Shown here: piece by piece, positions 15,954-40,485 of the stretch
Layout of the letters: each line of letters begins with the position of its first letter
How positions within the stretch are numbered: position 1 is the first letter of the stretch
Source: Schmidtea polychroa
Lineage: Eukaryota
DNA length: 64,000 nucleotides
Assembly (NCBI GenBank): GCA_044892525.1
Contig: CM097887.1
Span: 41,292,001 to 41,356,000, forward strand
Direction: 5' to 3'
Made by a program: the position numbers and the translations under genes
The notes under the pieces: model-generated
Told to the model about the DNA's origin: nothing
The model's database searches: none
What the model saw: the letters and a program-made list of their open reading frames with translations, nothing else

Positions 15954-16434
15954 GAAGATTGAGCTGTTGAATAGTGCCAGCCAGTCGTAAGATCGAGTTG
16001 TTGAATAATCCAACCGATCAGAAGGAAGAAGATTGAGCTGTTGAATAGTGCCAGCCAGTCGTAAGGTCGAGTTGTGAAAAGTCCAACCGATCAGGAAGGA
16101 GGAAGATTGAGCTGTTGAATAGTGCCAGCCAGTCGTAAGATCGAGTTGTTGAATAGTCCAACCGATCAGAAGGAAGAAGATTGAGCTGTTGAATAGTGCC
16201 AGCCAGTCGTAAGATCGAGTTGTTGAATAGTCCAACCGATCAGAAGGAAGAAGATTGAGCTGTTGAATAGTGCCAGCCAGTCGTAAGGTCGAGTTGTGAA
16301 AAGTCCAACCGATCAGGAAGGAGGAAGATTGAGCTGTTGAATAGTGCCAGCCAGTCGTAAGATCGAGTTGTTGAATAGTCTAACCGATCAGAAGGAAGAA
16401 GATTGAGCTGTTGAATAGTGCCAGCCAGTCGTAA
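15954..16434 (+). repeat. 74-bp tandem array, 6.5 copies, with A-B-A-A-B-A higher-order structure
   Basis: Units start at 15954, 16028, 16102, 16176, 16250, 16324 and 16398. B units carry ggtcgagttgtgaaaagt...caggaaggag. Confidence 0.95.
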
Positions 16435-17740: not shown

Positions 17741-18646
17741 ATGACGAATGTCGTAAAAACCGACGAGTATAAAGAGAAGTTCAGAGGAGAACCTTTCAAC
17801 GGAAACGCAAACAAGCTAGCATCGTTCATAACTAATTTTGAAGTTTATATCACTGTGTGTGGATGGACACCCGAAGCAATTAGTAAAAGGATGCCGTTGT
17901 TTTTGTGCGATAGTGCATTAGAGGTATATTTAGAAGCTAAAGAGAGAGACACGAAATTAGAAAAGTGGGAAGATATTAAAACATTCCTGAAGAAAACCTT
18001 CGGAGCCAGTAAGCCAATCAACCAGGCGTTGGGCGAACTAGCAAATAGGAAACAAAGAGCAAACGAATCGATAACATTATATGCCAGTGAATTGCGGAGA
18101 TTAGCGAAGAAAGCAATGAATGGAAAATTACCCGAAGAAAATCTGATCGGTTATTTCATAGAGGGATTACGCCGAGAAGAAGTAAGAGCCTCAGTAGGTT
18201 GTCAAATGTGCAAAACATTAGAGGAAGCCATAGATTGGGCTACAAGATGCGAGCTCCACCTTCCAGCTCAAATGAATATTATGCAAGAGGAGGGAAGGAT
18301 AGCGACAGCAATAGCGAAAGCGGATAACGGAGATAACAACAATCAAGAACCGAAAATGAATCAATTTATACCAGGAGCGCACCAAATTTTCAAACCACCA
18401 CAAGGACGATCAAACGGGAATAATGGTAATCGTAACAACCCGAATAATGAGAACAATTTCAATAATCGACGAAATATGAACGATAACAAGCAGTGCCGAA
18501 CATGCGGTAAACCAGGACACTGGGACAGAGATTGTTATAGAAATTCAAATTGTAATCGTTGCGGACGGCGTGGACATACCGAAAATGTATGCCAATTGCG
18601 AGGCTGTTTTGACTGTGGTCAGCCAGGTCACATCTCCAGAGATTGC
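17741..18646 (+). other. gag: Gag: capsid-like domain plus three CCHC zinc knuckles
   Basis: KQRANESITLYASELRRL...YFIEGL, then CRTCGKPGHWDRDC, CNRCGRRGHTENVC and CFDCGQPGHISRDC (18494-18646). Confidence 0.93.
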
Positions 18647-24600: not shown

Positions 24601-27600
24601 CCAATCATCTAACAGCGATAGTGACGGCGATGATAACGGGAACGATAAATGTCTTTATCCAAACAGAAACCCAAACGAAAAACCAATGGAAACGGCACCA
24701 TATTGGGAAAAGGAAAAGACAAACACCTGGATCGCCAATGGAAGCTATATACCACCGGATATCGTGGGACCACAAGCAGCTTTGACCATGACACAAAATA
24801 TGTATCCGCAATTACCGAGTCAACCCGGTATGCTTTATATGCCAACACGACGTACCAAAAGTGTAGATCAAGCAGATGACGTAAGAACAATCGCAGCAAT
24901 GAGTCTACCTGGAGGTCCAGCAGTAACAGTTATGATTCAAATCAATGGTAAAGAAACCAATGCGATGATAGACACAGGAGCTAATGTATCAGCGATAGCG
25001 ATTAATCAAATTCCCAGTAAACACTGGAAGGATATCGAATCAACAACAATTCACATCATAGCATGTAGTAAAGAAACAGTGGACGTGGTCGGAAGATGGT
25101 GGACTACATTGAGATACCAGGACAACGAAATTGAAACGTATTTGGCAGTAATACCAAAACTTAGCGTACCATGCATAATCGGAACGGATTTGATGCCAGA
25201 ATTGTTAAAGGAAGTCGTAATTGACTTAACAACCATGTGTTTAAAAGACAAAACCGGTAGAATATGCAAAATGAATTCAGTCATCAGATGTCCAGAAAAA
25301 ATAATAGTACCAGCAAAATCACAGATGATTTGTCAGATAAAAGTGGATACGGGTATGGAAGGAGAAGTTATCTTTGAACCAAGCAAGTCATTTGAAAAGC
25401 GACGAGAATTACCACTCGCAAGAGAAATAATCACAATAAACCAAGAAGGAGTGATACCGCTCAACATCACGAATTTCGAAGAGGAAGACAAAATCATTTA
25501 TGAGAACGAAAAATTGGGAAGATTGACCCCAATGATGGACATAGAATTACCGAAAGTGACCAACGAGATGATCAAAGATGATGAATTATGGACAATAGAT
25601 AGTATGTTGTTGACGAATGACGAAAAGAAAAAATTGCACCGATTGTTGGTAGAATATAAAGATATATTCGCCATCTCAGATTTAGACTTGGGTACATGTG
25701 ATGTTACCTTACATGCAATACCACTCATAGACGAAACCCCAATTGCATTGAGACCATACAAGCTAGCAGAAATGCAGAAAGAAATAGCCGAAACAGAAGT
25801 ACAAAAGATGCTAGACGCAAAAGTAATCGAACCAAGTTGCTCACCCTGGCAATTCCCAGTGGTCATGGTGAAAAAGAAAGATGGCACCCAACGATTCTGT
25901 ATCGATTATCGGAAGTTAAACGCAGTGACCAAGAGAGATACCTACCCATTGCCGGACATCAATGAGATGTTATTGATGTTGCAAGGGGCAGCATATTTTA
26001 CTTCTTTAGATCTAAAAAGTGGATACTGGCAGATTAAAGTCAAAGATGAGGACAAAGAGAAAACAGCTTTCACGTTGGGACGAGATCTATATCAATTCAG
26101 GAAAATGCCATTTGGACTGACTAACGCACCAGCATCATTTCAACGGTGTATGAACTTTGTCACCCATGGAATCAAACAATGTATGGTATATATTGATGAT
26201 TTACTAATCTATTCAGCGACATTTGAACAACATCTAGAAGATATCCGAAACGTATTTATTAGATTAAGACAGTGGAAACTCAAACTCAAACCATCAAAAT
26301 GCGATTGGGCAAAGGAAAAAGTCACGTTTTTAGGACACATAGTGTCAGCTAAAGGAAAGGAGCCAGATCCAAGAAACATTGAGAAAATAAAAACATGTCC
26401 AGCACCGAAAACTGTCACCCAAGTTCAGGAATTTCTAGGATTATGCGGATACTATCGCAAATTTATCAAAAATTATGCAGGAATTGCAAAACCAATCCAG
26501 GAATTAGTAAAGAAGGACATTTCGTTCTTATGGGGGAAGGAACAACAAGAGGCGTTTGAAACGCTGAGAGACAAACTAATCGAAGCACCTATCCTCGTAC
26601 ACCCAGATTTTAAGAAGCCATTTCTATTGGCAACGGATGCAAGCGGGTACGCGGCAGGCGCGATTCTGGGACAATTGGACGATGAGGGAAAAGAGAGAGT
26701 AATCGGGTATTACAGTCGAACATTCAAAAAGCACGAAAAGAACTATTCGGTAACAGAACGAGAAGCATTGGCTATAATACAAGCTATCAAACACTTCCGA
26801 TATTTACTATGGGGACATGAGATATGCATAACCACAGACCATCAACCATTAGTGTGGTTAGGGCAACATAAAGAAGCGTCCAGTAGACTGATGAGATGGG
26901 CCATGCAATTGCAAGAATACTCCCCATTTATAAAATTCAAAGCGGGAAGAGCAAATGCCAACGCCGATTGTATGTCAAGATTTATTTTCCCAGATTTGGT
27001 GGATTCAGAAATGCAACGCATATGCTTAATAGTAGCGGAAGATTTGGATTTCTGTCAATTGCGAAAGGACCAACAAGAGGACGCGGAATTAAAACAAATT
27101 ATCGATTATATAAAAACCGGACAGACAGATGTATATGCGAAAGACCAAAAATTAAAAGAACATATGGATAAACACCGACACCGATATATTATAGAGAAAG
27201 ATTGGTTGCTGATAATGGATGGGGAAAAACGATTAATGTGTATACCGGAAAACCGACGAAAAGAGTTACTAACGCAATATCACGATGGGAGATTGGGAGG
27301 ACATATGTCATCGAAAAAGACGTTAGCAAGAATGAAACAGAAATATTTTTGGCCTACGTTAACGGAAGATGTAACCGAATGGGTAAAAAATTGTCTAACT
27401 TGTGCAACCAGGAAGAATACGGGATCGAAATGGAAAGCACCTTTAACGCCAATGCCAGTACCAATAGAACCAATGACAATGATATCCATGGACGTAGTTG
27501 GTCCACTACCAGAGTCAGATAAAGGAAACGTTTACATTCTGGTGATCACAGACTTTCTTACGAAATTCCCAGAAGCATTCGCGATGCCAGACCAAAAAGC

Positions 27601-30600
27601 TAAAACAATCGCAAAAATTTTGGTAGAAGAGATATGTTGCCGATATGGAACACCAAAACAAATCTTAACCGATCAGGGAACAAATTTTATGAGTGAGATA
27701 ATGAGCGAAGTAACAAATTACTTCAAAATAGCAAAACTAAGAACATCTCCATACCACCCTCAAACCAATGGGATGACGGAAAGATTTAATGGAACACTTA
27801 TACAAATGTTATCAAACTACGTTGACCGTCACCAACGAGATTGGGACGAATATATAAACCTATGTCTTATGGCGTACAGAATGTCGATTCACGCATCAAC
27901 GAAAATGAGCCCATTCAAATTAATGTACGGAAGAGAATGTAATATGCCAATGGACCTGGAATACCAACCACCGATATCGCAGTATATGGAGATCGATGAT
28001 TATGTTACGAAATTCAAGGAAAGAATGCAAGAAATTTGGGAAACTGCGGGATTAAATATCAAGTTCTACCAGGAAAGTTATAAAGATTTACACGATCGAA
28101 AGAAAAACGTGAAGCAACATACGTTCCAAACAGGTGATTGGGTAATGATAGAAACCCCGGAATTAATTCCAGGAACCACAAAAAAGTTACAACGCAACGG
28201 AAAAGGACCATATGAGATCTTATTCGTAGGCGAAACTAATGTAAGAGTGAAATTGGTAAATAACCCCTTTACCAGACCAATATACGTAAACGTGGCACGA
28301 TGCAAATCAATTCCAAAAACAGCCACTAGTCAACCAGAAGGCCGTACATTAACCACACGTTCGCAAACCTACCGAATGAACATGATGCAACAACTCGCAG
28401 AACCGATCACTGGACGATTAGGTATCCAACCATCAGAAGCGGAAAAGATTGTAAAAGAGGTAAAAATTAAAATACCTGGATGGGCGAAAGATCGATTAGA
28501 TTTCGAAATATTAGGAGGATTATTGACGATGATCGAGAACTATGCAAATAGAGAAAGGACACACCCATTATTGCGAGTAGTCAAAAGCCAATGGCCAATA
28601 TTATTTACAATAACAGATCATTACGGAGACACACCATTACACAAACTCATGAAAGTAGGTAACAACGAGCAAATACTAGAAACAATAGAAGCATTTCACG
28701 ACTGCAAGCGATCAACAGAACAAACAAACAACCAAGGTTACACACCATTAATGATAGCCGCAAACAGAGGCAAAACAAAAGACATTATAACCGCATTACT
28801 CGATACCGGATCGAAAATAACTACACAAGACCACGAGCGGAAAAACGCTCTACACCATGCTATCGAAGGGAGAAGTACCGAGGCGTTCACGTCATTGATG
28901 GAACTACTATCATATGAGGACAATCGGGAAGTCGGAAACATGTATGATGGATTGTTAACAGCGATCAAAGAAAAACTGACGACAATTACCGGAATATTAA
29001 TTACATGGAGAAATCCAATTCGAAACGATTATATGATCAACGTAAACGAAGCGTTCACGAGAGGAGAGAACACGCTGATGAGAGAAGCTATGAAAGGACA
29101 TCAGTTATTCGAAATCCCGAATCAATTACTAGAACGAGGGATAAAATTCACAAATCATAAAGACGAACAGTTAGCAAAAAAGCGAATCGACACATTCGAA
29201 AAATCCCTATTCCAATTTACTAACCAAGTACGAAATAAATATTGGGAAACGGTAAGTGTGTTATATATGATGGACACAATGAATAACATCCGCGAGAATT
29301 ACCTGGATATTATCCAAATACTTACAGCAGAGGAACGAATCAATAATCCAAACGGAAAGAAAACGAAAATAAGGTATGAGAAATCCAGGGAATCAAAGTC
29401 AACAACGAACCAAACGGTCACAAACAACGTCATCGAAACCAAATCAATGAGTATAGATCAAGAGGCAATAATACGCAAAGCAAAAGAAGTGTTCTTTGAG
29501 GAAATGCTAGAGCTGCCAGACGAAATAATATTGTCAAAAATAATAAAAGCCGTACACACATACGCAAGAGATCAAACCACGGATTTAGATATCGGGAAAA
29601 TCAAAACCTTCTTGCCTCGAGCATTTACGATGGTAACGAAGGATTCCAGAACACCCCTACAACAAGCAATACTAGCAGCGAAAGAAAATAGAGCAATAAC
29701 GATCGTGAGAATCCTTGGAGAGATGGGCGAGGAAACCAACACGAAAAATGAACAAGGTGAAACCGCCATGATGTATGCAGCTATAACGAAAATACACCCA
29801 AAAACACTCCACATCCTACATCAATCAGGATCGAAACTAGACGAAAAGTCCAATGAAGGAAATTCCACCTTGGACTGGGCAACCATACAGCCAAACTTAG
29901 AAATGATCAGATTTATTTGCAAAAATGCGACAAAAGAAGAAGTCGAAAATATGTGCAAAAACACATCTCAGTTTCAATGGAATGCGGTACGGAAAAATCT
30001 AGAAGCAATGAAATTATTATTAACCTGGAGAGTACCACAAAATAATAAATATGCGATAAATGTAAACGAATTCTACGAAAACGGAGAAAATGCGATGGTA
30101 AAGAATACCCTAACTAAGGGGGGGACACCTAAAATAATTTTAATAGTATTAAATAGAGAAGACCTAAAATTCACGCAAAATCAGAACGAGCAACAACGAA
30201 TTGGGAAACATCGTCGTATGCAATTGAGAGAGTTAGTTAAAGAATGGAATAGAAAGAGACATGCTGCAACGGGTAGAAAAGAGTTTGAATTCGAAGCAAA
30301 ATTAGCAAGAAACAGAGTGCTAACAGCATATCGCAGATTATTGAACGATATAAATGTCGAGGACGACATTTTAAACGACAGCGGGGGAGATAAACACGAT
30401 GACAATAACGGAAAAGGCCGAAAGGAGGATAAAGAGAAAAGAGAACAGGAGGAGGGTAAACCGGAAAACAAGGATTCGGATACGAAAAGAGAGGGAAACA
30501 GCCCGGGAACTAAGACCAAAGAGGAGGAAAAATCGAATAATGGAAAACAGAGGGTATGCCTACCTTTCACTAACAAAGAAATAGAGACAAATATGATATT

Positions 30601-31594
30601 AATGATAATTATGCTTACCATGATAGAGTTAGTAACAGCTCAGGGAGGGACGAGAACGATAAAAGAAACCAAAGAAGCGGAGAATCAAGATAGCAAAGAG
30701 GATGAACTAAAGCAAGAAAAGAAAAAGCAAGCACAAGAGCAGCAGTGGGATTTAAAGGAAGAATGGGACTTAAAGGAAAGGTGCATACTAGGAAGATGCA
30801 TGTCTAGAGCGTATCAGAAACTAGTACTGATAAATGAGGCCACAGAACCAATAACAGAAGTAAGAATACAAGAAGCATACCGAAATCGAGACGGGAAGAG
30901 AATAACGAACGTCAAAGGAAAAGAGGTACACCTAGGAAAAGGTGGTGAAGTAGTAATAACGCAGATCCAACCTAGAAAAGAGCACAAAGTCTGTATTTCA
31001 AGATTAGGACCAGGCGAGAGATGCCATCAATATGTGACGCAGCAGCAGCCGCCGAAAGAATACACGGTTTGTATCTGGAGGAATGAATCAAAAAGAGAAT
31101 GCCGACGATACCCGGGGAAAAGAGGAAAGAAAAGAAAAAACCACGACGAAAAGAACGAAGGAGGAAAGCACAAGAAAACTGGTGAGGAAGCTCAGGACAA
31201 CTATGTTTCGGAGGAAGAGATGGAAAAAATACAAAAGATGGCAAAGGAGGGTATGAACGAGGAAATAGCAAGAATACGGGAAATGATGAAAGGAAATGGC
31301 AAAAGAGGAAACGAGAAAAGTACAGAAGCGATATCAACATTAACAAACAAGGAAAAACCAGAGAGTATAAGCGTGAAGCAGATGATGTGGATCAGTGGGA
31401 TAATAATAACAGGGGCATTCCTAATCATAACGGGGGGAACAATAAAAATAATTAAGGATAAACGACATCGCGGAGAACTAGAGATGACTCGAATCAGAAA
31501 TTTCCAACATCGAGTGAAACGACCAAGTGATATCAAACAAGAACAGTGGGTGGAGGCCTGGAACGCTCAGCGCCCTCCAAACTCACGTATATAG
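17741..31594 (+). CDS. gag-env-pol: 4,617-aa Gag-Ubl-Bcl2-Env(G)-PR-RT-RH-IN-ANK-TM polyprotein
   Basis: Single frame, with no stop codon or frameshift. Motifs: DTG (24971), YIDD (26189), TDAS (26633), HHCC zinc finger and D-D35E (27491, 27671, 27779), GPY motif near 28205. Confidence 0.97.
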   Translation: MTNVVKTDEYKEKFRGEPFNGNANKLASFITNFEVYITVCGWTPEAISKRMPLFLCDSALEVYLEAKERDTKLEKWEDIKTFLKKTFGASKPINQALGELANRKQRANESITLYASELRRLAKKAMNGKLPEENLIGYFIEGLRREEVRASVGCQMCKTLEEAIDWATRCELHLPAQMNIMQEEGRIATAIAKADNGDNNNQEPKMNQFIPGAHQIFKPPQGRSNGNNGNRNNPNNENNFNNRRNMNDNKQCRTCGKPGHWDRDCYRNSNCNRCGRRGHTENVCQLRGCFDCGQPGHISRDCRERGQQQRPPQRNNNYIANPQRQSNPNEGKQMNVMQEISQMKQMMQQMMRPRQESAPQQTQNIRMMRSTENLNNYEVHQHVQEWQRLQAEEERIKQERNQQRQEQPLRINMMKLVKDMKSQYCYNYGKSPRVVPMTEPEKVKEITTEMKTENSTTILKGNQRIQKIFWKKIKDKIEKEHNKAKTETEDENNKSKEQTSQLNHQMLQESEPEETTIFERKKLKKVPRMRNLQINMMKRTKDVASSDEEEDYVSSLGGEILQLNEISEPPKGEIKEEEGESEITSESEDEDIEIKLRKGKEEAIKQVAEILPVVVRNQEFIDVIPFRRFVQKVMKLERNEKDLIPNEEKSIIKNYMEKMKQADTTRYVIKIGTSRGLERMWIKNTVTDELFDWIREHLGSSRKKEYLYQYQGEQIKPDMHLVDALIWPGETQILKLHKEKQPANLYDWAKDAKAEYDFNIKLKLEQIKQCTLRRNLDKLIKQIQEQVEDNWDLLITRRAPAMYELMSRLRDTEMLRMSDWRTINLIHKYGRLKETQPQRLEITIWLPNEEKRRIKMSNQSTVDDLVSKINQEITEKVRSESSDGMVDDVVMMYDKIILRAEDDTSLSEMGMWDNHQIIRIVPMDEFRTRDVTYQKEIRDRMKTLYQKSTEIIEIHQQWLKEKELQGKITKLNTRSCRRTPWERVWNAESKEWEIRKGTFVETDIGETESESEEEEEEPPEYEEEAREQTSDDESETDVTSESENEARHIHAMRKKEREYADMDGEEAAEAREREEKERYKQLGDILAMGAKNQRRQVVALANIILKTSENIHNLRGMAKAIEEYRQYNEWYPEQLEQIIRKWRNQEWAQDTQERYHIRIKYPDKSIEELEVHPTTKIRELKKKLAYETPFHLQLFGKSLDDNADVGITPMRLEETNVLTMAETLGKPLKRKSKIIKPTQGSLSTPSPNKAPSKSNETEEVEEIILEDSDDEPGERSPLLVRWPTGAEMWTNNQPSTSYQQPTKLNIKEIIDNTTETETDEQFQKQREPTKVTPESQTDKIIDEWNEWLRNNDSSLPRTDNERNPNYENTREAGTMMEKRAKGRPKKQGEKSEFKTKEQLKQEQGQVRLEKLDKIVWDLKEAQPTIERGEKWIRELLKDMLIITNPQLRRLWQRKVASTEARQLWHTISGIIPKLIKEKTKTTKTDWDETKRVIEQLTTNANDDEHHLVVITYLMYNLMGLAARKIPNKQFANHVEMTVSIIENTIEPHIIRAGGWKRLIQAPRKNEQERSMQVRLKKLLNELEWELPMKDPASRKASINSLMMTMMIWMLCTSGATGFTIYDCDNMIMRDKYSLRDIEECRQASPNKLDIVRTKVTYHVYQESDFIRTQARECVVSKKVLAYYCGQYSYSTLILPGLDKEIVSIQREDCKELFRTGALKMHNGVTIHGQTGMIKTESVYVAGKVKSSDGSCNGGTYTIRGEVISGVVVIESYTVELKEYEAQFDANNYQMKTNPACKATENVCRTGVSTIIYEANTQKCRLQLLKSALFNEVKGEIYENENDEDGNDRVRMRNGKPMPPSPREKRLSTQKTPTALITDDPDLGMRFIKEKETTKCDSIVYKTNYAGIYMSRQIIDRAVGKIATEDVKLYLYANNKMDFLFHRGQTTLQKVYYDLIQNDCSLNKEILKTKLAIAITHPDNTMPSLPLPDGHFGRMVGEVMYTYQCTKTYARMPEKSILPEKRCANELEIRYKGQNRFVQPVTRIMNPVGFYPNLFNCSNAYGPLYERPDGKWMMLPGKTISEEPKKFGLIELATELDFKPIDVSNGGMYSPEDLETARLNVLFPARRESILSNMVTITGGTNYQSGPNYELLLSPDHFQQATSNMMKAMWGRFLVFGQMMAGILGIILIIQIVRVILTQMLACFDIYKREKKVNWKMIVGFLPFLAKTMVLHGHSKDIHRIKRLIKILTKIKGTDEEVGRRFRKVMYDEATRRQLKKNKPKFLDRFRSQSSNSDSDGDDNGNDKCLYPNRNPNEKPMETAPYWEKEKTNTWIANGSYIPPDIVGPQAALTMTQNMYPQLPSQPGMLYMPTRRTKSVDQADDVRTIAAMSLPGGPAVTVMIQINGKETNAMIDTGANVSAIAINQIPSKHWKDIESTTIHIIACSKETVDVVGRWWTTLRYQDNEIETYLAVIPKLSVPCIIGTDLMPELLKEVVIDLTTMCLKDKTGRICKMNSVIRCPEKIIVPAKSQMICQIKVDTGMEGEVIFEPSKSFEKRRELPLAREIITINQEGVIPLNITNFEEEDKIIYENEKLGRLTPMMDIELPKVTNEMIKDDELWTIDSMLLTNDEKKKLHRLLVEYKDIFAISDLDLGTCDVTLHAIPLIDETPIALRPYKLAEMQKEIAETEVQKMLDAKVIEPSCSPWQFPVVMVKKKDGTQRFCIDYRKLNAVTKRDTYPLPDINEMLLMLQGAAYFTSLDLKSGYWQIKVKDEDKEKTAFTLGRDLYQFRKMPFGLTNAPASFQRCMNFVTHGIKQCMVYIDDLLIYSATFEQHLEDIRNVFIRLRQWKLKLKPSKCDWAKEKVTFLGHIVSAKGKEPDPRNIEKIKTCPAPKTVTQVQEFLGLCGYYRKFIKNYAGIAKPIQELVKKDISFLWGKEQQEAFETLRDKLIEAPILVHPDFKKPFLLATDASGYAAGAILGQLDDEGKERVIGYYSRTFKKHEKNYSVTEREALAIIQAIKHFRYLLWGHEICITTDHQPLVWLGQHKEASSRLMRWAMQLQEYSPFIKFKAGRANANADCMSRFIFPDLVDSEMQRICLIVAEDLDFCQLRKDQQEDAELKQIIDYIKTGQTDVYAKDQKLKEHMDKHRHRYIIEKDWLLIMDGEKRLMCIPENRRKELLTQYHDGRLGGHMSSKKTLARMKQKYFWPTLTEDVTEWVKNCLTCATRKNTGSKWKAPLTPMPVPIEPMTMISMDVVGPLPESDKGNVYILVITDFLTKFPEAFAMPDQKAKTIAKILVEEICCRYGTPKQILTDQGTNFMSEIMSEVTNYFKIAKLRTSPYHPQTNGMTERFNGTLIQMLSNYVDRHQRDWDEYINLCLMAYRMSIHASTKMSPFKLMYGRECNMPMDLEYQPPISQYMEIDDYVTKFKERMQEIWETAGLNIKFYQESYKDLHDRKKNVKQHTFQTGDWVMIETPELIPGTTKKLQRNGKGPYEILFVGETNVRVKLVNNPFTRPIYVNVARCKSIPKTATSQPEGRTLTTRSQTYRMNMMQQLAEPITGRLGIQPSEAEKIVKEVKIKIPGWAKDRLDFEILGGLLTMIENYANRERTHPLLRVVKSQWPILFTITDHYGDTPLHKLMKVGNNEQILETIEAFHDCKRSTEQTNNQGYTPLMIAANRGKTKDIITALLDTGSKITTQDHERKNALHHAIEGRSTEAFTSLMELLSYEDNREVGNMYDGLLTAIKEKLTTITGILITWRNPIRNDYMINVNEAFTRGENTLMREAMKGHQLFEIPNQLLERGIKFTNHKDEQLAKKRIDTFEKSLFQFTNQVRNKYWETVSVLYMMDTMNNIRENYLDIIQILTAEERINNPNGKKTKIRYEKSRESKSTTNQTVTNNVIETKSMSIDQEAIIRKAKEVFFEEMLELPDEIILSKIIKAVHTYARDQTTDLDIGKIKTFLPRAFTMVTKDSRTPLQQAILAAKENRAITIVRILGEMGEETNTKNEQGETAMMYAAITKIHPKTLHILHQSGSKLDEKSNEGNSTLDWATIQPNLEMIRFICKNATKEEVENMCKNTSQFQWNAVRKNLEAMKLLLTWRVPQNNKYAINVNEFYENGENAMVKNTLTKGGTPKIILIVLNREDLKFTQNQNEQQRIGKHRRMQLRELVKEWNRKRHAATGRKEFEFEAKLARNRVLTAYRRLLNDINVEDDILNDSGGDKHDDNNGKGRKEDKEKREQEEGKPENKDSDTKREGNSPGTKTKEEEKSNNGKQRVCLPFTNKEIETNMILMIIMLTMIELVTAQGGTRTIKETKEAENQDSKEDELKQEKKKQAQEQQWDLKEEWDLKERCILGRCMSRAYQKLVLINEATEPITEVRIQEAYRNRDGKRITNVKGKEVHLGKGGEVVITQIQPRKEHKVCISRLGPGERCHQYVTQQQPPKEYTVCIWRNESKRECRRYPGKRGKKRKNHDEKNEGGKHKKTGEEAQDNYVSEEEMEKIQKMAKEGMNEEIARIREMMKGNGKRGNEKSTEAISTLTNKEKPESISVKQMMWISGIIITGAFLIITGGTIKIIKDKRHRGELEMTRIRNFQHRVKRPSDIKQEQWVEAWNAQRPPNSRI
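19733..21400 (+). other. Up to three ubiquitin-like domains (19733-19951, 20255-20506, 21203-21400)
   Basis: The third, YHIRIKYPDKSIEELEVHPTTKIRELKKKL...LQLFGKSLDD, follows the ubiquitin pattern. The first two are weaker beta-grasp-like matches. Confidence 0.6.
21960..22420 (+). other. Bcl-2-like helical domain
   Basis: BH2-like IEPHIIRAGGWKRLIQ; degenerate BH1 position (DEHHLVVITYLMYNL); helical amphipathic sequence throughout. Confidence 0.65.
22520..24430 (+). other. env: Chuvirus-like viral fusion glycoprotein with internal signal peptide and TM anchor
   Basis: Signal SINSLMMTMMIWMLCTSGATG|FTIYDC. Conserved motifs YDC..SL..C, C....YYCGQYSYS, DGSCNG, GEVMYTYQC, FVQPVTRI and GGMYS. REKR furin-type site at 23324-23335; TM at 24242-24347. 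Confidence 0.85.
24905..28320 (+). other. pol: Pol: retropepsin, linker, RT, RNase H, integrase
   Basis: AMIDTGANVS; PWQFPVVMVKKKDG..RFCIDYRKLN; YIDD; LATDAS..EREALA..TDH..ADCMSR; H..GH..C..C; MDVVGPLP, TDQG, GMTERFN; GKGPY. All catalytic residues are present. Confidence 0.97.
28613..30180 (+). other. Two ankyrin-repeat modules duplicated with a 340-aa period
   Basis: GDTPLH/GYTPLMIAA/KNALHHA and RTPLQQA/GETAMMYAA/NSTLDWA. Both TPL (28631 vs 29651) and TWR (29006 vs 30026) anchors are offset by exactly 1,020 nt. Confidence 0.85.
30593..31453 (+). other. C-terminal signal peptide + small Cys-containing ectodomain + TM (type I membrane module)
   Basis: MILMIIMLTMIELVTA|Q; FN3-like strands ITQIQPRKEHKVCI and PPKEYTVCIW; TM MMWISGIIITGAFLIITGGTI followed by KIIKDKR. 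Confidence 0.6.
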
Positions 31595-31754
31595 AAAGGA
31601 ATATGACTGTATATAATTGTAAAAAGTAAGTATATCTTATGTATATAACAGTACTATATCTTTATATAAGCGCGGTATCAATATTATACAATAACGGGAA
31701 TCATAAAATAAAATTAAATTTACATAAGAGCTGAAAAGTGTATATAAATTAGGA

Positions 31755-32114
31755 ATGGATCAAGGAAATAACGAAATGAACCACAATACAGTAACTGAAG
31801 AATTATGGAAGCAACAATGTGCCGTATTAGCACAATTAGTGTCCAATTTGCAAGAACAAGGACTGACGATGCACAGAAACCTGATCGAGAGTATGAACAG
31901 AGGATTTAGTTATTTGAAGATAATTGAAGACCAGAGGTTAAAAATCGAACAAATGCAAAGAGAGATAGAGAGGATAACCCAATATAGCCGTCGACAGGAA
32001 ATTGAAATAGACAGAATGATGGAGGAAGCAGAACAGACGGAAATAGAAGACTGGTCGGAATGGCTAATGAATAGAGAGGAGAGCGGACACGAAGCCGACT
32101 CTTCCGAACCCTAA
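31755..32114 (+). CDS. 119-aa coiled-coil accessory protein
   Basis: Same A-rich codon style as the polyprotein; heptad-like E/Q/R-rich sequence. Confidence 0.7.
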   Translation: MDQGNNEMNHNTVTEELWKQQCAVLAQLVSNLQEQGLTMHRNLIESMNRGFSYLKIIEDQRLKIEQMQREIERITQYSRRQEIEIDRMMEEAEQTEIEDWSEWLMNREESGHEADSSEP

Positions 32115-32199
32115 ACCAAACCTAGCTCAAAATGTAAATAATTGTAAATAAAATATCGAACCTGTATCGATAAGAACTATTTGTACATATAATTATAGA

Positions 32200-33588
32200 A
32201 TGGATAAACGACAAAGAGAAGAGTTCAGAGAGATTGTCGAGCAAGTCCGAAAATCTACAACGATCAGAATACACAAACATGTTATGTGCGGAATATGTGA
32301 AAAGTTGTTAAAGGAACCTCACCAAACGCAATGTGGATGCAGAGTATGTAAAGAATGTATCAGTGAAGCAATAAAGAATAGACCACAGAAGTGCCCGGTG
32401 TGTAAAGAGACACTAATATCGAGTTTAGAAGACACTAACGAGGATAAAGCCGCAGTGAAAGACATGTTAAACACCAACCTGGGATGCAAAAATGCCCCAT
32501 GCGAATGGAAAGGAGTAATATGGAAGGTAGTACAACATATGGGAGAATGTATGTACAGAATTGGCCAGTGTGAAAGGTGCCATAAAACCATTCGAGCAAG
32601 CGAAGAAAAAGAGCATCAAAGGCAGTGTGAAGAGAGATTGGAAAGATGTGAACACTGTGGAGAAATAGATACGTGGATAAATCTCACCCTCAAACATCAC
32701 AATGTCCAAGAGGAGAGAGTATGTGCGGAGTTCAGTGGGGAATGCCCAAACGGATGTAACCAAGGGGAAATAATGAAGGTGGCACAGCATCTAAGGGAAT
32801 GCGAAAAGAAAAGAATGACATGTGTACTAGGTAGATGGGGTTGTCAGAAATTACTACACCGAGGTGAGTTACCACATCATTTAGTAGAAAATGCTTCAAC
32901 TCACGCAGAAATGTGGTCGACTGCGTTACAAGAAAGCGAAGAGAAAGTAAAACAAATGGAGATAGAGATAACATCGTTGAAAGTGTTAGTCAAAGAACTA
33001 CTAGAAGAAAGGGAAGCGTTCGAAGAAGCCCGAGCAAACATAAAGATGCAAATAAACCGAACAGAAATTAGTAATAATCAGGCCAAGGAGCTACATCAGA
33101 AAATACGGGAAATAAATCTAAATGAGATAACCCCAACAGCACCCTACATATGGAAAATAACGGGAGTAAAAGAAAGAATACGAAAAGCAAAAACCGGAGA
33201 AGAGACAAGAATAACAAGTCCTACATTCCATTCTTGGAAAAATGGGTACAAAATGAAAATGAAGGTATATCCCAACGGGGACGGAACCGGATTGGATACG
33301 CACTTTTCGATTTTCTTTCTGTTATGTAAAGGAGAATACGACGAAATATTAGAATGGCCGTTCCAGGCAAAAATCGATATTACTCTGATGAACAACCAAA
33401 GTATACATGAGCAAAGCTTCAAAACAACGGGGAATCAAATAGCTTACCAGAGGCCCCTCAACGAAGAAGGATCAGCAACAGGAGCACCCACGTTCATCTC
33501 ACAACAAAGAGTGGAAGATATGGCGAGAAATGATACCATATATATCAAGATGACCGTGAGGAAAGAGGAGAAGGGTAGAACGGAATAA
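32200..33588 (+). CDS. TRAF: Full-length intronless TRAF homolog (RING, TRAF zinc fingers, coiled coil, MATH)
   Basis: CGIC...CGCRVC..C...CPVC; repeated C..C...H...C fingers; MATH motifs YIWKI, GYKMKMKVYPNGDGTGLDTHFSIFF, GEYDEILEWPF. Confidence 0.93.
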   Translation: MDKRQREEFREIVEQVRKSTTIRIHKHVMCGICEKLLKEPHQTQCGCRVCKECISEAIKNRPQKCPVCKETLISSLEDTNEDKAAVKDMLNTNLGCKNAPCEWKGVIWKVVQHMGECMYRIGQCERCHKTIRASEEKEHQRQCEERLERCEHCGEIDTWINLTLKHHNVQEERVCAEFSGECPNGCNQGEIMKVAQHLRECEKKRMTCVLGRWGCQKLLHRGELPHHLVENASTHAEMWSTALQESEEKVKQMEIEITSLKVLVKELLEEREAFEEARANIKMQINRTEISNNQAKELHQKIREINLNEITPTAPYIWKITGVKERIRKAKTGEETRITSPTFHSWKNGYKMKMKVYPNGDGTGLDTHFSIFFLLCKGEYDEILEWPFQAKIDITLMNNQSIHEQSFKTTGNQIAYQRPLNEEGSATGAPTFISQQRVEDMARNDTIYIKMTVRKEEKGRTE

Positions 33589-33726
33589 CCAATCGAATAA
33601 TGTTGTATATAATAATCTGTATATATCGGTGTATATAACCAATAAAATATTATATAATAATAGTATGAAAACCCTAAATACGAAAACCCAAAAATGATGC
33701 GAAAATTTCCCAAGAAACAGTAAATA

Positions 33727-34836
33727 ATGAATAAATTCCTTTTCATAATAAAAAGATTAATCGATGTCTATGATTTAGAGATGACACAAGAGAAAATAAC
33801 CGAAACTGCGATAGCCCCAACCAATGTCAACAAGACACAAATTCCCCGAGAACATAATAAAAAATGGAACAAAGTAATGTTCCAACTAACTAATCTCACC
33901 CGAAATCACATCGAAGAAACTAGAGAAGATGAGAATAGTCAATACCAATGGTTAATACACAACTTAAGAGCGGAAGCAGAAGCATGCAAAAGAGCATCAA
34001 AATGGGCGTCACTAGAAAATACCCGCCAAGAAGCACACAGCCACTACTTAAAGCAGCTAGTGCAGGAAGCGAGAAAAAGACTTACCGATGAGAACACCAA
34101 GCGCGAAGCGGAAAAACAAATAGAAGACAGGAAAATGATGCACTTAGTGGCAGAAGCGAGAAAATGGAAAAGACAAAACAGAGAAATGAAAAAAGAGATG
34201 AAAGAATTGCCCATGAGACTCGGATATGAAAGCGAACAAGGTAAATGGGAGGAGAATTTAATAATAAAGGAAGAATTGAAAAGGTTGAGAAAAGTCGCCG
34301 CCCGAAGCCAAACCTGGCAAACAAAGGCTATGGAGTTTGAGCGACATTTGGCAATGAAGTGCGACATAAGAGAGCACGAGAATGCCGCAATGGAAGAGAT
34401 GATAACCCAACAAGCGGGACGGGTTGTGGAATTAGTAAATCAGGTAGAAGAGATGAAAAGAGACCTTAATGGATTACAAGGATCGCTGGAACAAAGAAAC
34501 ATGGTCCTAGCGGGAAAAAACAGAAAATTAGAAAACGAAAGGAAAATGTACACCGAAAATATTAAAAACTTAGAAATAGAAATTGAAAAATGGAAGGGCG
34601 ACGAGAAAATCAAGGCCCTAGACAAACAGATAGAGGCGAAAGATGAAGAGACAAGGTATCTCACCTATCTGCTCGACGAGGAATTGAATATCACTCGAGC
34701 TCTAAGAGACGAAGTTAGTGAATTGAGAGCTCAAATTCCCCAATATTACCTACCATACGACCCTATTGCGATACAGTTACATTCCGCGGTCGATAGTGAT
34801 GAAGGTTATGTAGGCCAGGAGGAAACCTTCGTATGA
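33727..34836 (+). CDS. 369-aa long coiled-coil protein (possible start 33781)
   Basis: Open frame, E/K/R/L-rich heptads, element-like codon usage. Confidence 0.75.
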   Translation: MNKFLFIIKRLIDVYDLEMTQEKITETAIAPTNVNKTQIPREHNKKWNKVMFQLTNLTRNHIEETREDENSQYQWLIHNLRAEAEACKRASKWASLENTRQEAHSHYLKQLVQEARKRLTDENTKREAEKQIEDRKMMHLVAEARKWKRQNREMKKEMKELPMRLGYESEQGKWEENLIIKEELKRLRKVAARSQTWQTKAMEFERHLAMKCDIREHENAAMEEMITQQAGRVVELVNQVEEMKRDLNGLQGSLEQRNMVLAGKNRKLENERKMYTENIKNLEIEIEKWKGDEKIKALDKQIEAKDEETRYLTYLLDEELNITRALRDEVSELRAQIPQYYLPYDPIAIQLHSAVDSDEGYVGQEETFV

Positions 34837-34950
34837 GGGTGGATGAAAAGATGAAAAACTAAAAACCGGGACGTATATCCCAAACAAAAAAATTAAAGTA
34901 TTGTAAAAGTATTCAAGGGACTATAACCCAAACTATTAAATTTTATATCA

Positions 34951-35703
34951 ATGTATACGTATAAGTCGCACTATAGCGCACCATTAACTGTACATATTAT
35001 AGATATGAAAATCGAGGAAATGATAGAAATTATGAGCGACGTAGAAGAGGGAGAGATTGAGGCAGAAACAACAGAAACACAAACGCTAAAGGCCGAGTTA
35101 CGGGAAGAGAAATACGAAAACGGGAGATTAATAAACAAATACCTGGAGGACCGGAAAATGATAAAGGTGTTAAAGAAAGAGTGCGAAGCGTTGGGGGAAA
35201 TAAAAAGAGAAACGGAAGAGGAAAATGAATGGCTACACGAACAAAGGAAGCGAGGGAAAAACTGGGAAAAGATAGCGGAAGAGCTATGGAAAGAGAGGGC
35301 AAGCTTCAAAGCAAAGGAGGTAATCCAAGACTACTGGAAAACTGAGGCGAAGGAGCGCCAAACAGCTATAAATAAATTAAAACGACAACTAGAAGAAAAC
35401 CAACGGGAAAGTAAAGAAATGAGGAAGTGGGTTCGCAAATATAGAGAAATAGAAAGAAAACATCAACAACAAAATTACCTGCAAGAAAACGAACAAGATC
35501 TCCTACAAATCGAGCTAAAAAGAAACCTTGAAAAGAAAAGGGAAGAAATTAGACGCTTGGAAAAAGAAATTAGACATCTAAAGAGAGAAGCCCGTGAAAA
35601 AGACCGACAATTGGAAATGCTGCCCGAGTTAAGACACAGGGTAATTAAAGCAGAGTCCACCTTGATGAGAATCGGTGAAAATAATCCAAATCAGAACCAT
35701 TAA
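34951..35703 (+). CDS. 250-aa coiled-coil protein (likely start 35005)
   Basis: Open frame with E/K/R-rich heptads. The first 18 codons resemble spacer sequence. Confidence 0.75.
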   Translation: MYTYKSHYSAPLTVHIIDMKIEEMIEIMSDVEEGEIEAETTETQTLKAELREEKYENGRLINKYLEDRKMIKVLKKECEALGEIKRETEEENEWLHEQRKRGKNWEKIAEELWKERASFKAKEVIQDYWKTEAKERQTAINKLKRQLEENQRESKEMRKWVRKYREIERKHQQQNYLQENEQDLLQIELKRNLEKKREEIRRLEKEIRHLKREAREKDRQLEMLPELRHRVIKAESTLMRIGENNPNQNH

Positions 35704-35743
35704 ATTAAGGGTCATTAAAACCAATTGTAAATAAACATAATGA

Positions 35744-36412
35744 ATGTATAATAGTATCATGCGAGGCGAGATGATGATAACAATGATGGTATTGATGATT
35801 CTGATGGAGAACAAACAATTAAACGCCCAACCGAAAATCGTACGAGATTACCGCAATCAAAATCAAGAACCTAAACAAGAATCCGGCAAATGCACATACC
35901 CTATGACCGTAAAAACCCATATCATCCAAACCATTCAATCAACCCGATCCCACATCAACAACATCCAAACAATGTGTAAAAAGAACCCCATTTGTAAAAT
36001 GATAAACAAACAAATCTTCGAACAAAGCCAACAGATCGACCAGTTGGAACAACAAATGCAACAAGAGGATTTTGAAAATCTTGTAGAAAAGCCAAAAACA
36101 CCTCCCGAGATCAATGACACCCATTATCTCATATATGTGGTGATCGCAGAGACCCTCCTCCTATGTCTACCAATATTCATGAAAATTTACGAAATTCGAA
36201 ATAGATGTAGAGTCTCGACATCAATAAGAGTAACCTCGAACCAAAATCCTCAAGAAGTGCCCCTGACAAATCTTAACCCAACCCCATTCCGACCTCGAAC
36301 CCCGAGTAATCAACCAATCCAGCCGAAATCTAATAGTCAGACCTATCTCAACATCAATACCCAAACCAACCAACAGCCGCCAGCAGAAGCATCAATGGTT
36401 AACAGTTCATAA
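35744..36412 (+). CDS. 222-aa predicted type I membrane protein (signal peptide, Cys/coiled-coil ectodomain, TM, Pro/Asn-rich tail)
   Basis: MMITMMVLMILM...LNA|Q; TM YLIYVVIAETLLLCLPIFM followed by KIYEIRNR. Confidence 0.7.
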   Translation: MYNSIMRGEMMITMMVLMILMENKQLNAQPKIVRDYRNQNQEPKQESGKCTYPMTVKTHIIQTIQSTRSHINNIQTMCKKNPICKMINKQIFEQSQQIDQLEQQMQQEDFENLVEKPKTPPEINDTHYLIYVVIAETLLLCLPIFMKIYEIRNRCRVSTSIRVTSNQNPQEVPLTNLNPTPFRPRTPSNQPIQPKSNSQTYLNINTQTNQQPPAEASMVNSS

Positions 36413-36638
36413 ACTCTAACTCAAACATTTGTGTTATTATATGTGGAAACTTTTATTGTATGTACAAACTATCACCTTAAGTGATACTTGCTTGATCTTG
36501 CTTTGACCTAGATCTTACAATAAAAATTTTATCATTGTTGTATAATTGTCGTGTTCGTGTTATATTTTTTTTTTGAATGAATGAATTAAGTTAATTATGC
36601 AATTGCGGGACGCAATTTTGATGGGTCCCCGAGTGATT

Positions 36639-39600
36639 TGTTGGGCTGAGTCGAAAATTTAATCGTTGAAAAATAGGAAAGTAGGGAAGTAGAACATTAA
36701 GAAAAATAATAATAAAATAAATAAAATCAGAAATAAAATAGAATAAGATATAAGGAAAATAATAATTAAGACATAAGAATTAAAACAAAAAATAAAATTA
36801 AGAAAAGATTAAAATAGAACAAGTTGACAAATAAATAAAGAGGAATTCAAGAAATAATAAGGAAATTAAGGAAATAAATAGAAAAACATATTAAAAATAA
36901 AGAAAATAAGGAAAAAACAACCTAAAAACAAGAAAATTATATTAAATTAATAGAAATAAGCGGTACTCAACTCTGATTGGTCCGCACAAATAAGAATTTG
37001 ATATATATACAACTACCAAAAACATTAAATTTACTGTTAACCCCGAGCATTTCATAGGTAAGAAAAATGTTTACTGTTTTTACTGTTAACCCCGAGCATT
37101 TCATAGGATCGACACTACTAGCCAAGCAACCGTCATTCAGAAAACTCCACAACTATTCAAAACCAGTTCAGAGACCGAAATACCATTCATCACAATAATC
37201 GACATCCAACGGACCACCATTAGAACTATTTGGAACGAACAACATTGAATTTTGACTCAGCCTAACAATAGTAAGGGGTATTTCATTTGTTTATAGATTT
37301 ATTTAAGTATTTGCAAAGCTAATAATAATGTTAAATATTAACGATTAAACATTTTAGTTAACTCTCTTCATTTGATTCTCCATTTTAATAACTTTAACGT
37401 ATTGATGGAATTTGTATTATTTAAGTATTTCCGAATCAATAAAATATTTTAATCCAGATGTCCGTATTTTATTTGAATTAAAGATTTTATGAATTTTCAT
37501 TTAACGAGTAACGTGGAGTTGAGATACTCCATGTCATGGTATGAGGTGCCTTCGGGAGCTCAGCCGGTGGACATGGAGTATTTCAATCGCGCAGCTAGAT
37601 TGGGCCGAAATGTGAAGGCTTCTTCACGGGTCCTATCGCTGAAGATGCGACTAAATTATCACAATGGGGTATGGATAAAAAATAACCGGTAGACAATGAT
37701 TTCACAAAGATAGTCATACGAATGAAGGGATTTTCAAGGATTTGCACAGTGATTGAGGGCGTCGCATTCTTCTTTCGTCAAGTCGTTTTCGTAAATCTTA
37801 CCCCTATTGAAAAATGAGATCCAGACAACGATTTAGTGAACTTCGTCAAAAATAACGACATCTCATAGTACGCTTCATCTGGAAACATGGTTTTATCAAA
37901 TTAATTGCGACAACGTCTATTTGCCGGACTCAGTAGAACTAAATTCGTATGAAATTCCATTATCATAGACCCAATGTCATCTAACCTGTCCAGATTGTAT
38001 GTCAAGTTACGTAAGTATTCTAAAAACTTTGACTAACTCGAAACTATAAAATGCGAGATTCTACGAAAACCCTCTCTAATATTATAATCAGAAAGTTTTT
38101 ATAGACTTAGTTATTTCAAAAATTATAAACAGGTAAAATATCACCAAATTTAATTAATAACATTTATTTCTACAATAAGAGCCAGGTCATCACTGTATAT
38201 ATCCAAATTATTGAACCTGAGAGAAAAGGACAGGTTTCATCGAGACGGCATTACATCTGAATAGGAAAATCCGAGTAGAATGACGAGAGTAGTAATTTGC
38301 TCCAGTATTTGGTAGAATTATTCCCTCGACGATCACAGAAAAGATCCAATAAATTTCCAAACGATGGTGATCATTCACACAAGTTGATAAGGGTAAAATT
38401 CCGCGATGAGAACTGGCGGTAGCATAAATCATAACTCAAATAGATCACTGTGCAGAGAAAATCATACGACAGCAGGATCGATAAAATCACCGTGAAAATG
38501 GCATACACCAAGTGAGTGAGATAAGATAGTAGCCATACGCGAATCCATGTGGTGAGAGCACAAAATATCAGACTAGCATACATAATAGTCGCGACACGTG
38601 ACATTCACAATAGGTCGATAATGTAATCAACTAGTCGACAGTAGTATCCGTAAATTTGGACATGTGTTATGACCGATGAGATATCCCATGAGGGTGTTAA
38701 AGTAATGGCTGATGTAAACTCATCACATATTTTCAGACCAATGGTAGACAACATAGATAATCACATTCACTACCGAATTAAAAGTGCACTTCCAATAACA
38801 AATTTCGAATCAAAAAATATGTTGAGAATAGCGATAGTAATTTGTTTGTAATAAATTAAAATAGATAACATATAGCAAGGTTTGGTCGCATACTATAATG
38901 TCCCTCTACTAAAGCATTATTATATTGTTTCACCAATATTATATTTACCCCCTATTAATTATTACGCCCCTCATGTATACGGTTAGATCAATAGAGAGTC
39001 AAAGTTAATAACATGCGTCAAACCGAGGGCATTTGGTTAAATAAACTGTTTTAACAACTAAGATCCGTAGTAAAACCGGATGGTAGAATAAGTTTTCCTT
39101 CTGTTCGACGGTCAAGTATCCACGAATGGACGCGGGTCGTATCTAATTTATTCTAAAATCGTATGTTCTCCATTTCATTAGTATTATTTATAGCAAGCAT
39201 GCTACCAGCCACTAAATCGGCATTACGGCCGTGCTTCTCGTGCGCGGATAAAAATACGGTGATAAAGGACCTACAGACTCAGATTGGACGTTACAAGAGG
39301 AAGATAGACGAGCTGGAAGGGACATGGTTTAGTCCCGCTCGGATGAAAGAGATCCAAAAGAAGCTCGATCGTAGCGAGCATTGCCGGGACGCGCTAATAT
39401 CTGAGAGCCGTGCCCAAAGAAGTCTAATCAGAGAACAATCCGAGGCACTGCATAAGGTTTACGTGCAGGCGGCTACAACCCGAAAAATCGTGCAGATTCC
39501 CATCCGAGAGGCCGATGACATCTTTCCGCCTCATCACAACCTTTCCTCGAATCCATCTCCACCGTTCAAGAGACCGTGCCGAGACTGCGTCGAAACCGAA

Positions 39601-40485
39601 TGGTCCCCCAAGCGTCCAGATGTTGTCATCACGGGTACCAGTAAGCCCCCCACTGCTAGTCCATCTGTATCAGTCACCCTTCTGCAAGTGGCATCTTCAA
39701 GCAAACCCAAGCGCAAACAACTCTCTCGTGCAGAGCGCAAGAAGAGACAGCGCGAGCGCGCTACTGCAAAGCCAAACATCCCATCAATAGAGGACTCAAC
39801 TAACGGTGGCAACTCTCACGTGTCCATCGACCTAACAACGGGACCCTCAGCGCGAATCATATCAGCCGCTGGCGTAAGGTGGGAAGAGAACGCTTCCGAG
39901 TTTTTCAACCTCGACGAATTATTCGCCGACACTGAATGGGAGAAACAATAAAACCCCAGTGGCGGTCAGGATGAGGAACAAGGATCCGATCTATGTTGAT
40001 TATGATGTTTTCTCTTCTTTCGACAAACATTAGTAAAGTGTACAGCTGAATCCTTGTGTCATAACGTTGAAATTAATAAATCTTGTTGTCTTACACGTTT
40101 TCGTTCATGAATAATTAGACTTTAATTAAGTGGGTTGAGTAGAGAACCCGCAAGATCTAGTGAGAATTTCCCAATTTGCATTCAGCGAATCCTGATAGGT
40201 GGTTGTGTAAGGAAATGGACGTAAGCCCTTCTATCGGCAGTCGTGAATGGGAAGTCGAGGCCTCAGCAAGGAGTAGTTTTAAGGCAGAAGCTCACCTGCT
40301 TGCTGGCGTCTCGCCTGCATAGTGCAGTACCAACGTGAAGTGATTCACGGGCACTATGTTGGAAGAAAGTTATGTGGGGTTTCACTCCAGGTTGACAAAT
40401 CGGTGGCACCTTTTATTCGAGATGGACAATCAACCCTTAGACCCGCCAACATGGTAGAATGGTCAGCCGAGGTGTGACCCCAACA
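36639..40485 (+). repeat. 3' LTR (3,847 bp)
   Basis: Copy of 10685-14531, followed by the AAAT TSD. Confidence 0.97.
39163..39951 (+). CDS. LTR-encoded ORF, 3' copy
   Basis: Translation identical to 13209-13997. Confidence 0.7.
   Translation: MFSISLVLFIASMLPATKSALRPCFSCADKNTVIKDLQTQIGRYKRKIDELEGTWFSPARMKEIQKKLDRSEHCRDALISESRAQRSLIREQSEALHKVYVQAATTRKIVQIPIREADDIFPPHHNLSSNPSPPFKRPCRDCVETEWSPKRPDVVITGTSKPPTASPSVSVTLLQVASSSKPKRKQLSRAERKKRQRERATAKPNIPSIEDSTNGGNSHVSIDLTTGPSARIISAAGVRWEENASEFFNLDELFADTEWEKQ

Follow-up and report, generated by a model that had tools for sequence, protein, structure and literature searches.

How does a retrotransposon that carries a row of separate open reading frames (ORFs) express each of them? 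This question is raised by positions 31595 to 36638 of a 64,000-nucleotide (nt) stretch of Schmidtea polychroa DNA (contig CM097887.1; the whole stretch is called the window below). Judged by its sequence, this interval is the 3′ accessory-gene array of an intact, env-bearing giant Gypsy long terminal repeat (LTR) retrotransposon of the Burro type. Burro elements shape planarian genomes, and the route by which their accessory genes are expressed is not stated in the sources covered here. We find that acceptor-like sites precede eight ORFs of the element (the LTR ORF, RING, gag-pol, A1, TRAF, A3, A4, and A5). Our best reading is that one leader from the LTR is probably cis-spliced onto these eight acceptors in the manner of a complex retrovirus.

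An intact giant Gypsy element

The window holds one intact LTR element (10685..40485, 29,801 bp). Its two LTRs are 100% identical, with TG...CA ends, and the insertion is flanked by an AAAT target duplication. The main parts are as follows.

10685..14531, + strand: 5′ LTR, 3,847 bp, TG...CA; AAAT left flank at 10681-10684
14539..14556, + strand: primer-binding site, 20/20 identical in family F and invariant in family H (see below)
17741..31594, + strand: ORF1, 4,617 amino acids, with gag, CCHC, mononegavirus-like fusion protein, protease (PR), reverse transcriptase (RT), RNase H (RH), integrase (IN), and ankyrins
36639..40485, + strand: 3′ LTR, 3,847 bp; AAAT right flank at 40486-40489

We take the primer-binding site to be tRNA-Pro-like. 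Paired LTRs with TG...CA ends, the target duplication, the primer-binding site, and the domain order PR-RT-RH-IN are those of a Gypsy/Ty3 element. The fusion protein of ORF1 is a Monjiviricetes-type env that lies in frame between gag and pol (PF24664, E=7e-71). This env position, the length of about 30 kb, an ORF1 within the range of 4,600-5,100 amino acids, and the presence of ankyrin, MATH/TRAF, and RING domains are those of the Burro kind, and the layout described for Burro elements matches the element (PMC6431247). Two hallmarks of Burro1/GYPSM1, a BIR (B-IAP) ORF and a MATH domain inside ORF1, are absent from the element and present in family F. As to the BCL2-like ORF1 motif of the Burro kind, a Pfam scan gave no Bcl-2 match in ORF1 at E≤0.05.

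We call the family of this element A, and the two sister families found in the genome that was searched for copies (G000) H and F. Eight copies of family H were compared, and their accessory proteins are 26-79% identical to those of A. Family F is represented by two copies with accessory proteins 28-33% identical to those of A, and is Burro1-like in carrying a BIR-RING ORF and a MATH domain in ORF1. Family A is young, because all of the scored TRAF matches in G000 (92/92) are 95-100% identical and the leader-plus-donor motif of its LTR (see below) has 127 exact matches there.

Acceptor-like sites ahead of the start codons

Five ORFs lie 3′ of ORF1 (A1, TRAF, A3, A4, and A5), a RING ORF lies ahead of gag, and one ORF lies inside the LTR. 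These ORFs and the spacers of the 3′ array are listed here.

13237..13997, + strand: LTR-encoded ORF; acceptor TAG 13237-13239, ATG 13245, 250 amino acids; the H ortholog is 38% identical and begins TTTTCTAG/ATG
14869..15359, + strand: RING ORF; acceptor CAG 14869-14871, ATG 14874, 161 amino acids; PF13920, E=3e-11
31595..31754, + strand: spacer 1; TGTAHATA at 31608, 31640, and 31739; donor-like GTAAGT at 31626; TATATAAGCGCG at 31663; AATAAA 31707; TAG 31750-31752
31755..32114, + strand: A1, 119 amino acids, no family; 62-66% identical in H, 32% in F
32115..32199, + strand: spacer 2; TGTAHATA at 32133, 32143, and 32182; AATAAA 32147; TAG 32196-32198
32200..33588, + strand: TRAF, 462 amino acids, RING-zinc finger-coiled coil-MATH; best full-length named matches are triclad TRAFs (about 30%), which makes a planarian host probable
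33589..33780, + strand: spacer 3; TGTATATA at 33604, 33618, and 33630; AATAAA 33641, 33730, and 33747; TAG 33776-33778
33781..34836, + strand: A3, 351 amino acids, likely coiled coil, no family and no match in a database search; 70-79% identical in H, 33% in F
34837..35004, + strand: spacer 4; ATTAAA 34892 and 34935; TATAAG 34960; TGTACATA at 34989; TAG 35000-35002; post-stop motif absent
35005..35703, + strand: A4, 232 amino acids, likely coiled coil; 48-54% identical in H
35704..35758, + strand: spacer 5; TGTAAATA at 35726, overlapping AATAAA 35730; TAG 35752-35754
35759..36412, + strand: A5, 217 amino acids, a single hydrophobic segment at residue 121; 26% identical to the H ortholog over 98 amino acids
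36413..36638, + strand: T-rich pre-LTR region; AATAAA 36519

An earlier note on this DNA had listed seven ATGs with a YAG 1-5 nt upstream and six poly(A) hexamers, and all of these were found where it placed them. In four of the seven ORFs, however, another in-frame ATG lies upstream of the chosen one (at 33727, 34951, 35744, and 13209). The choice of start codons is nonetheless backed by the sister-family starts. Orthologous H ORFs begin at the same codon for A1, TRAF, A3, A4, and RING (for A4, three of eight H copies align from residue 1), and the A5 start occupies the matching place in the spacer alignment. The H LTR-ORF begins directly after a stop, two codons upstream of the equivalent of 13245.

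Spacer statistics were computed with one copy per family. A YAG lies 0-6 nt before the ATG in 5/5 spacers of A (dinucleotide-shuffle P=2.7e-5), 4/5 of H (P=0.002), and 5/6 of F (P=0.0018); as background, 14% of all ATGs in the element have a YAG 1-5 nt upstream. The spacers of A and H are related, whereas those of A and F give no blastn match below E=0.05. The RING ORF has a YAG 0-2 nt ahead of its ATG in H and F too. Among smaller env-Gypsy copies of other families, the first 3′ ORF follows a T-rich YAG in four (L033, L043, L053, and L073), and in two others (L038 and L048) an acceptor is not clear in the stretch inspected. Host tubulin introns end in the same A/T-rich TAG as the cassette acceptors; an acceptor weight matrix from six host introns is too small for site scoring. 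Because of the statistics, the conservation in divergent families, the likeness to host intron ends, and the ATG-free gag leader described next, splice acceptors ahead of each small ORF are supported at the level of sequence.

An ATG-free stretch ahead of gag

The gag frame starts 3.2 kb 3′ of the LTR, beyond the RING ORF and a poly(A)-like site (AATAAA at 15464 and 15502, followed by a T-rich tract).

17123..17740, + strand: gag 5′ region, ATG-free, with a strong acceptor ending at 17137 and a second at 17483

In family A, the 630 nt ahead of the gag ATG contain no ATG, whereas chance would give eight in the 603 nt that follow the AG (P about 3e-4). The corresponding ATG-free stretch is 531-557 nt in H and 511-523 nt in F, and in all three families the last upstream ATG sits just before the acceptor that in A ends at 17137. 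With gag behind the RING ORF and a poly(A)-like site, and with a strong acceptor at the start of its ATG-free leader, cap-dependent scanning would require splicing. The stretch looks like a spliced 5′ untranslated region (UTR), and this argument is independent of the cassette statistics.

Translation without any splicing would have to account for the same pattern. Under that alternative, the ORFs are read from genomic RNA through reinitiation or internal entry, the AG is part of the start context, and the motif found behind stop codons (TGTAHATA, see below) is a termination or reinitiation signal. Contigs that cross spacers unspliced would suit it, as would the distance of about one ribosome footprint between stop and motif. 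Yet the AG floats 0-6 nt from the ATG, unlike a fixed start context, the spacers hold up to seven upstream ATGs, and the gag leader begins exactly at the acceptor in three families. We therefore regard this alternative as very improbable.

Two further observations concern this region. At 17079-17283, a YAG-ATG is followed by a 38-nt GT..AG stretch (17100-17137) and a basic 48-codon frame, an arrangement kept in two H copies and possibly a ninth, small spliced gene. A 74-bp tandem array occupies 15879-16544 of the gag leader.

A predicted promoter, leader, and donor in the LTR

A common leader would call for a 5′ donor close to the promoter, and the LTR contains a candidate.

11022..11055, + strand: predicted promoter, ATTGG (reverse CCAAT) and TATATATA at 11048-11055
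11075..11109, + strand: predicted leader exon and donor; about 27 nt, ATG-free, ending at 11103; AG/GTAAGA with GT at 11104
14121..14126, + strand: LTR poly(A) signal with a GT/T-rich flank, the predicted end of R; AATAAA or AATATA is aligned in 2/2 H LTRs

The promoter-donor block lies 340-420 nt into the LTR. The ATTGG..TATA pair occurs once in the A LTR and once in each of two H LTR stretches that were scanned, and 8/8 H copies have it as ATTGG-TATATAA. The distance from TATA to GT is 56 nt in A and 54-55 nt in all eight H copies, with no ATG between; the H donors read GTAAA in seven copies and GTTTC in one. The A and H LTRs do not align in this region, yet they share the arrangement, and in both the 27-nt leader is repeated once without the donor. 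In family F, TATATATA is followed about 80 nt on by a GTAAGT or GTGAGT donor. With this layout, U3 would be short, R would extend for 3 kb to about 14140, and the common first exon would be tiny. At the level of sequence, the element has both features of a common-leader system, a promoter-proximal 5′ donor and an acceptor before each ORF.

A second donor, in U5 at 14267, was considered as the common donor and rejected; A and H retain it, but F lacks it and ATGs lie within its exon. This GTAAG lies 146 nt behind the LTR poly(A) signal and is invariant in A and H. Retroviral donors suppress the 5′ LTR poly(A) site, and by analogy the donor at 14267 could do the same here. A two-stem hairpin with the internal loop TACCAA is predicted at 14365-14403 (and in the 3′ LTR copy), at 1364-1411 of L090, and at 686-735 of L062. 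It occurs in all three families with different paired bases and has no Rfam match; according to these predictions, it is a candidate packaging or dimerisation signal.

Promoters could also lie within the array, as foamy virus has an internal promoter. In that case TATA-like spacer boxes would start short transcripts, and the AG would be an outron acceptor or part of the start site. The conservation of TATATAAGCGCG in spacer 1 and TATAAG(T/C)CGC in spacer 4 between A and H fits this proposal, as does a contig that starts 12 nt upstream of the TRAF AG. On the other side, the boxes are absent from F spacers and from spacers 2 and 5, the variants TGTACATA and TGTAAATA make poor TATA boxes, TGTAHATA is strand-specific (27 vs 1), and the LTR donor is left unexplained. 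Internal promoters are thus an improbable explanation. Both this proposal and translation without splicing explain less than the cis-splicing or spliced-leader readings.

Poly(A) hexamers and possible spliced-leader addition

The earlier note had also read the poly(A) hexamer behind each ORF as a signal. Hexamers are present, but at chance level (P=0.22, 0.81, and 0.10 in A, H, and F; joint P 0.09 for six spacers). They are missing from the spacer between A3 and A4 in three H copies tabulated and from that between ORF1 and A1 in one, and the background in ORF1 is 1.2 AATAAA and 1.0 ATTAAA per kb. Because the A-rich spacers (46% A) yield hexamers by chance, we did not count them as evidence, and they do not support internal polyadenylation after each ORF beyond chance. 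The one hexamer that occupies equivalent positions in A and H is the AATAAA within TGTAAATAAA of spacers 2 and 5; F has similar sites. Poly(A) sites with a T-rich flank occur after the RING ORF and in the LTR. From the proposal of alternative splicing and polyadenylation or of spliced-leader (SL) trans-splicing, the acceptors before the small ORFs thus stand on the grounds given above, whereas internal polyadenylation gains no support from the hexamers.

These results bear on an operon-like alternative, in which a long RNA is cut at internal poly(A) sites and the host SL is added at each downstream AG. The AG at 0-6 nt from each ATG suits such a mechanism, as do the conserved AATAAA sites of spacers 2 and 5, which lie 20-50 nt ahead of the AG. 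This AATAAA-to-AG spacing is within the flatworm operon range, the operons of S. mansoni being reported with a median spacing of 99 bp (PMC12582326). SL RNAs occur in S. mediterranea, and in flatworms a single acceptor is often used for cis- as well as trans-splicing (PMC12582326). A precedent is the C. elegans element Cer1, which has an SL1-spliced subgenomic RNA (PMC3315495). In addition, the start of one contig falls approximately on the G of the A3 acceptor, where an SL junction would be expected, although this single contig is 86% identical and ambiguous.

Against SL addition stand the chance level of the hexamers, their absence from some H spacers, and the composition of the spacers, which are A-rich and do not show the U-rich surroundings that planarian cleavage sites are reported to have (PMC5068929). 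A conserved cis donor also exists upstream. The AUG that ends the SL (PMC12582326) would be out of frame at 7/7 A sites. The in-frame rate (0/7 in A, 6/21 overall) is that of chance and therefore fits an ATG-free leader. From the sequence, common-leader cis-splicing gains a conserved promoter-proximal LTR donor, and SL trans-splicing gains nothing specific. We consider the operon-like alternative unlikely.

A Pumilio-type motif behind the stop codons

The octamer TGTAHATA occurs 11 times in the five A spacers and not once in the 13.9 kb of ORF1. The 16 spacers of A, H, and F contain 27 copies, compared with 0.62 expected and a single copy on the reverse strand. It lies 14-23 nt behind the stop in 4/5 A, 4/5 H, and 5/6 F spacers. 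The sites match the Pumilio response element UGUANAUA on the sense strand and in a 3′ UTR position, and the host has a cognate PUF protein: under the canonical PUF recognition code, the repeats of a host-encoded Pumilio carry the canonical recognition residues. Orthologous TGTAHATA sites differ mostly at position 5, the position that is free in the Pumilio element (PMC5758885). Whether host Pumilio binds the motif just behind the stops, and so controls the stability or translation of each mRNA, is a proposal that we regard as evenly balanced.

Three other roles were considered and rejected. The motif is not a general trait of host 3′ UTRs, being found at 0/29 genuine gene ends (25 tubulin, 4 Ras-like); this check covered 60 loci, of which 13 were dropped as duplicates or stop-containing, leaving 47 distinct downstream sequences, 0 with TGTAHATA. 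UGUA as a CFIm-type poly(A) enhancer is disfavoured by the reported lack of UGUA enrichment and of CFIm59/68 in S. mediterranea (PMC5068929). Finally, the motifs do not suit donors of spacer mini-introns, given the invariant T at -1 and the 28-nt length in spacer 5, and no GT..AG joint for such introns is among the joints listed (15 of 33).

Transcript-level data and the balance of evidence

In the model that we favor, a CCAAT-TATA promoter in the 5′ LTR would drive one long RNA, which unspliced would presumably serve as the genome. The ATG-free leader of about 27 nt would be cis-spliced to one of eight AGs just ahead of each ATG, so that each ORF would come first on its own subgenomic mRNA. 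The poly(A) site of the LTR or the one behind the RING ORF may form the 3′ end of most of these mRNAs, and sites inside the cassette would be weak at best, although we hold this part only tentatively.

None of the sequencing runs listed with this interval is recorded as RNA. Three runs guessed to be RNA and one that is likely DNA were compared as contigs over 29000-36700, a range that does not include the donor. Run X1 covers 29/30 bins, by divergent copies. One contig begins approximately at the G of the A3 acceptor, as noted above, and another carries an A17 tail at 35403 inside A4; this tail and the two contig starts near acceptors are indistinguishable from priming or strain effects. No leader- or SL-like sequence is among the 22 of 566 loose ends of X1 that were listed. 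Transcript-derived N-termini were also sought by protein searches, which returned no Burro proteins from planarians.

Several observations weigh against a common spliced leader. No spliced read or GT..AG joint is among the rows listed for the three RNA-guess runs (15 of 33 joints in X1), which were compared as contigs over a range that does not include the donor. Contigs from these runs span spacers 4 and 5 without a splice, and the start of one lies 12 nt ahead of the TRAF acceptor. The genome G000 contains no leader-N(0-5)-ATG retrocopies, an absence that is uninformative because the RNAs in question would have no primer site. The search for the promoter and donor was made post hoc, family F has an ATG inside the putative leader, and two sister sites without YAG (H A1 and the last ORF of F) carry AAG instead. 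The implied introns of 20-25 kb would bypass strong upstream acceptors, whereas six resolved host introns are 41-50 nt. TGTAHATA also lies 8-15 nt ahead of three acceptors, and the stops of A3, A5, and RING are not followed by it; therefore, a pure 3′ UTR role is insufficient for the motif.

A broader version of the proposal can be built on the same sequence features. Eight single-gene mRNAs with a Pumilio site one ribosome footprint behind their stops would form a virus-like program that couples accessory mRNAs (TRAF, IAP, and RING) to a stem-cell RNA regulator, and internal cleavage with SL addition would make a true multi-gene operon in a retroelement. We consider this version doubtful.

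Other features of the window and related loci

In spacer 4, three tiny GC-closed hairpins with similar loops (34860-34982) are kept in H, and Rfam gave nothing credible in the leader or cassette. The pre-LTR tract at 36600-36638 is not purine-rich, yet it is conserved across A, H, and F. Elsewhere in the window, 43314-43486 is a near-perfect inverted repeat of 84 bp, and 52800-60000 is the decayed remnant of an env-bearing Gypsy from a different family, which lies largely on the minus strand and is about 33% identical to ORF1; G000 contains relatives of it that are about 70% identical and have long frames.

In other samples, gag-env-pol polyproteins of 2,700-4,000 amino acids (P0001-P0006), on ENA/JGI contigs of 13-32 kb, show the env-inside-ORF1 layout. 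Three loci (L065, L069, and L088) hold multi-copy Bcl-2-like ORFs beside ATPase-, integrase-, and capsid-like ORFs, and presumably resemble Maverick/Polinton elements. A single truncated Rab-like fragment recurs together with its 5′ context at about 18 loci (within L104-L128), which form a dispersed multi-copy family.

Comparison with known systems

The kind of element described here is already known, and its expression grammar is absent from the papers surfaced by our literature searches. None of the papers listed dealt with the splicing of Burro RNAs or with LTR elements that carry Pumilio sites; this negative does not extend to Lee et al. 2026 and Grohme et al. 2018, the two most likely to map Burro RNAs, which may bear on novelty. 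With the Burro/GYPSM1 giant Gypsy elements of planarians, the element shares a length of about 30 kb, multi-kb LTRs, a single huge ORF, env between gag and pol, ankyrins, TRAF/MATH and RING accessory domains, and many near-identical copies (PMC6431247). The section of that source on Burro is silent on how the accessory ORFs are expressed. Family A differs in having no BIR and no MATH inside ORF1, and family F, with its BIR-RING ORF and a MATH in a 4,791-amino-acid frame, is the better fit to Burro1. The Burro1 B-IAP is an accessory gene reported to protect stem cells (Lee et al. 2026 Dev Cell, as cited in PMC13465017); that element likewise has apoptosis/ubiquitin accessory genes in a 3′ array. 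The BIR-RING ORF of F follows the acceptor grammar of the family A cassette, whereas family A has no IAP.

Cer1 (PMC3315495) and flatworm operons (PMC12582326) share with the element the placement of acceptors near start codons, and Cer1 is a Gypsy element that uses cis- and SL trans-splicing for a subgenomic RNA. Cer1 differs in making one spliced product rather than having a gene array (PMC3315495), and in our element SL use would be the less likely route.

The model, if true, would make a Gypsy element as elaborate in its splicing as the complex retroviruses. It supplies exact donor and acceptor coordinates and suggests Pumilio as a means by which the host could act on the element. Complex retroviruses (HIV, foamy viruses, and WDSV) and the adenovirus major late unit use one 5′ donor with many acceptors. 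The element would share this arrangement, together with accessory genes that flank the main genes and lie in the LTR; multiple poly(A) sites like those of adenovirus would be no more than putative in it. Unlike complex retroviruses, it belongs to the Gypsy group, its eight ORFs do not overlap and are set apart by AT-rich spacers, its R is predicted to span 3 kb, and a Pumilio-type motif follows most stop codons.

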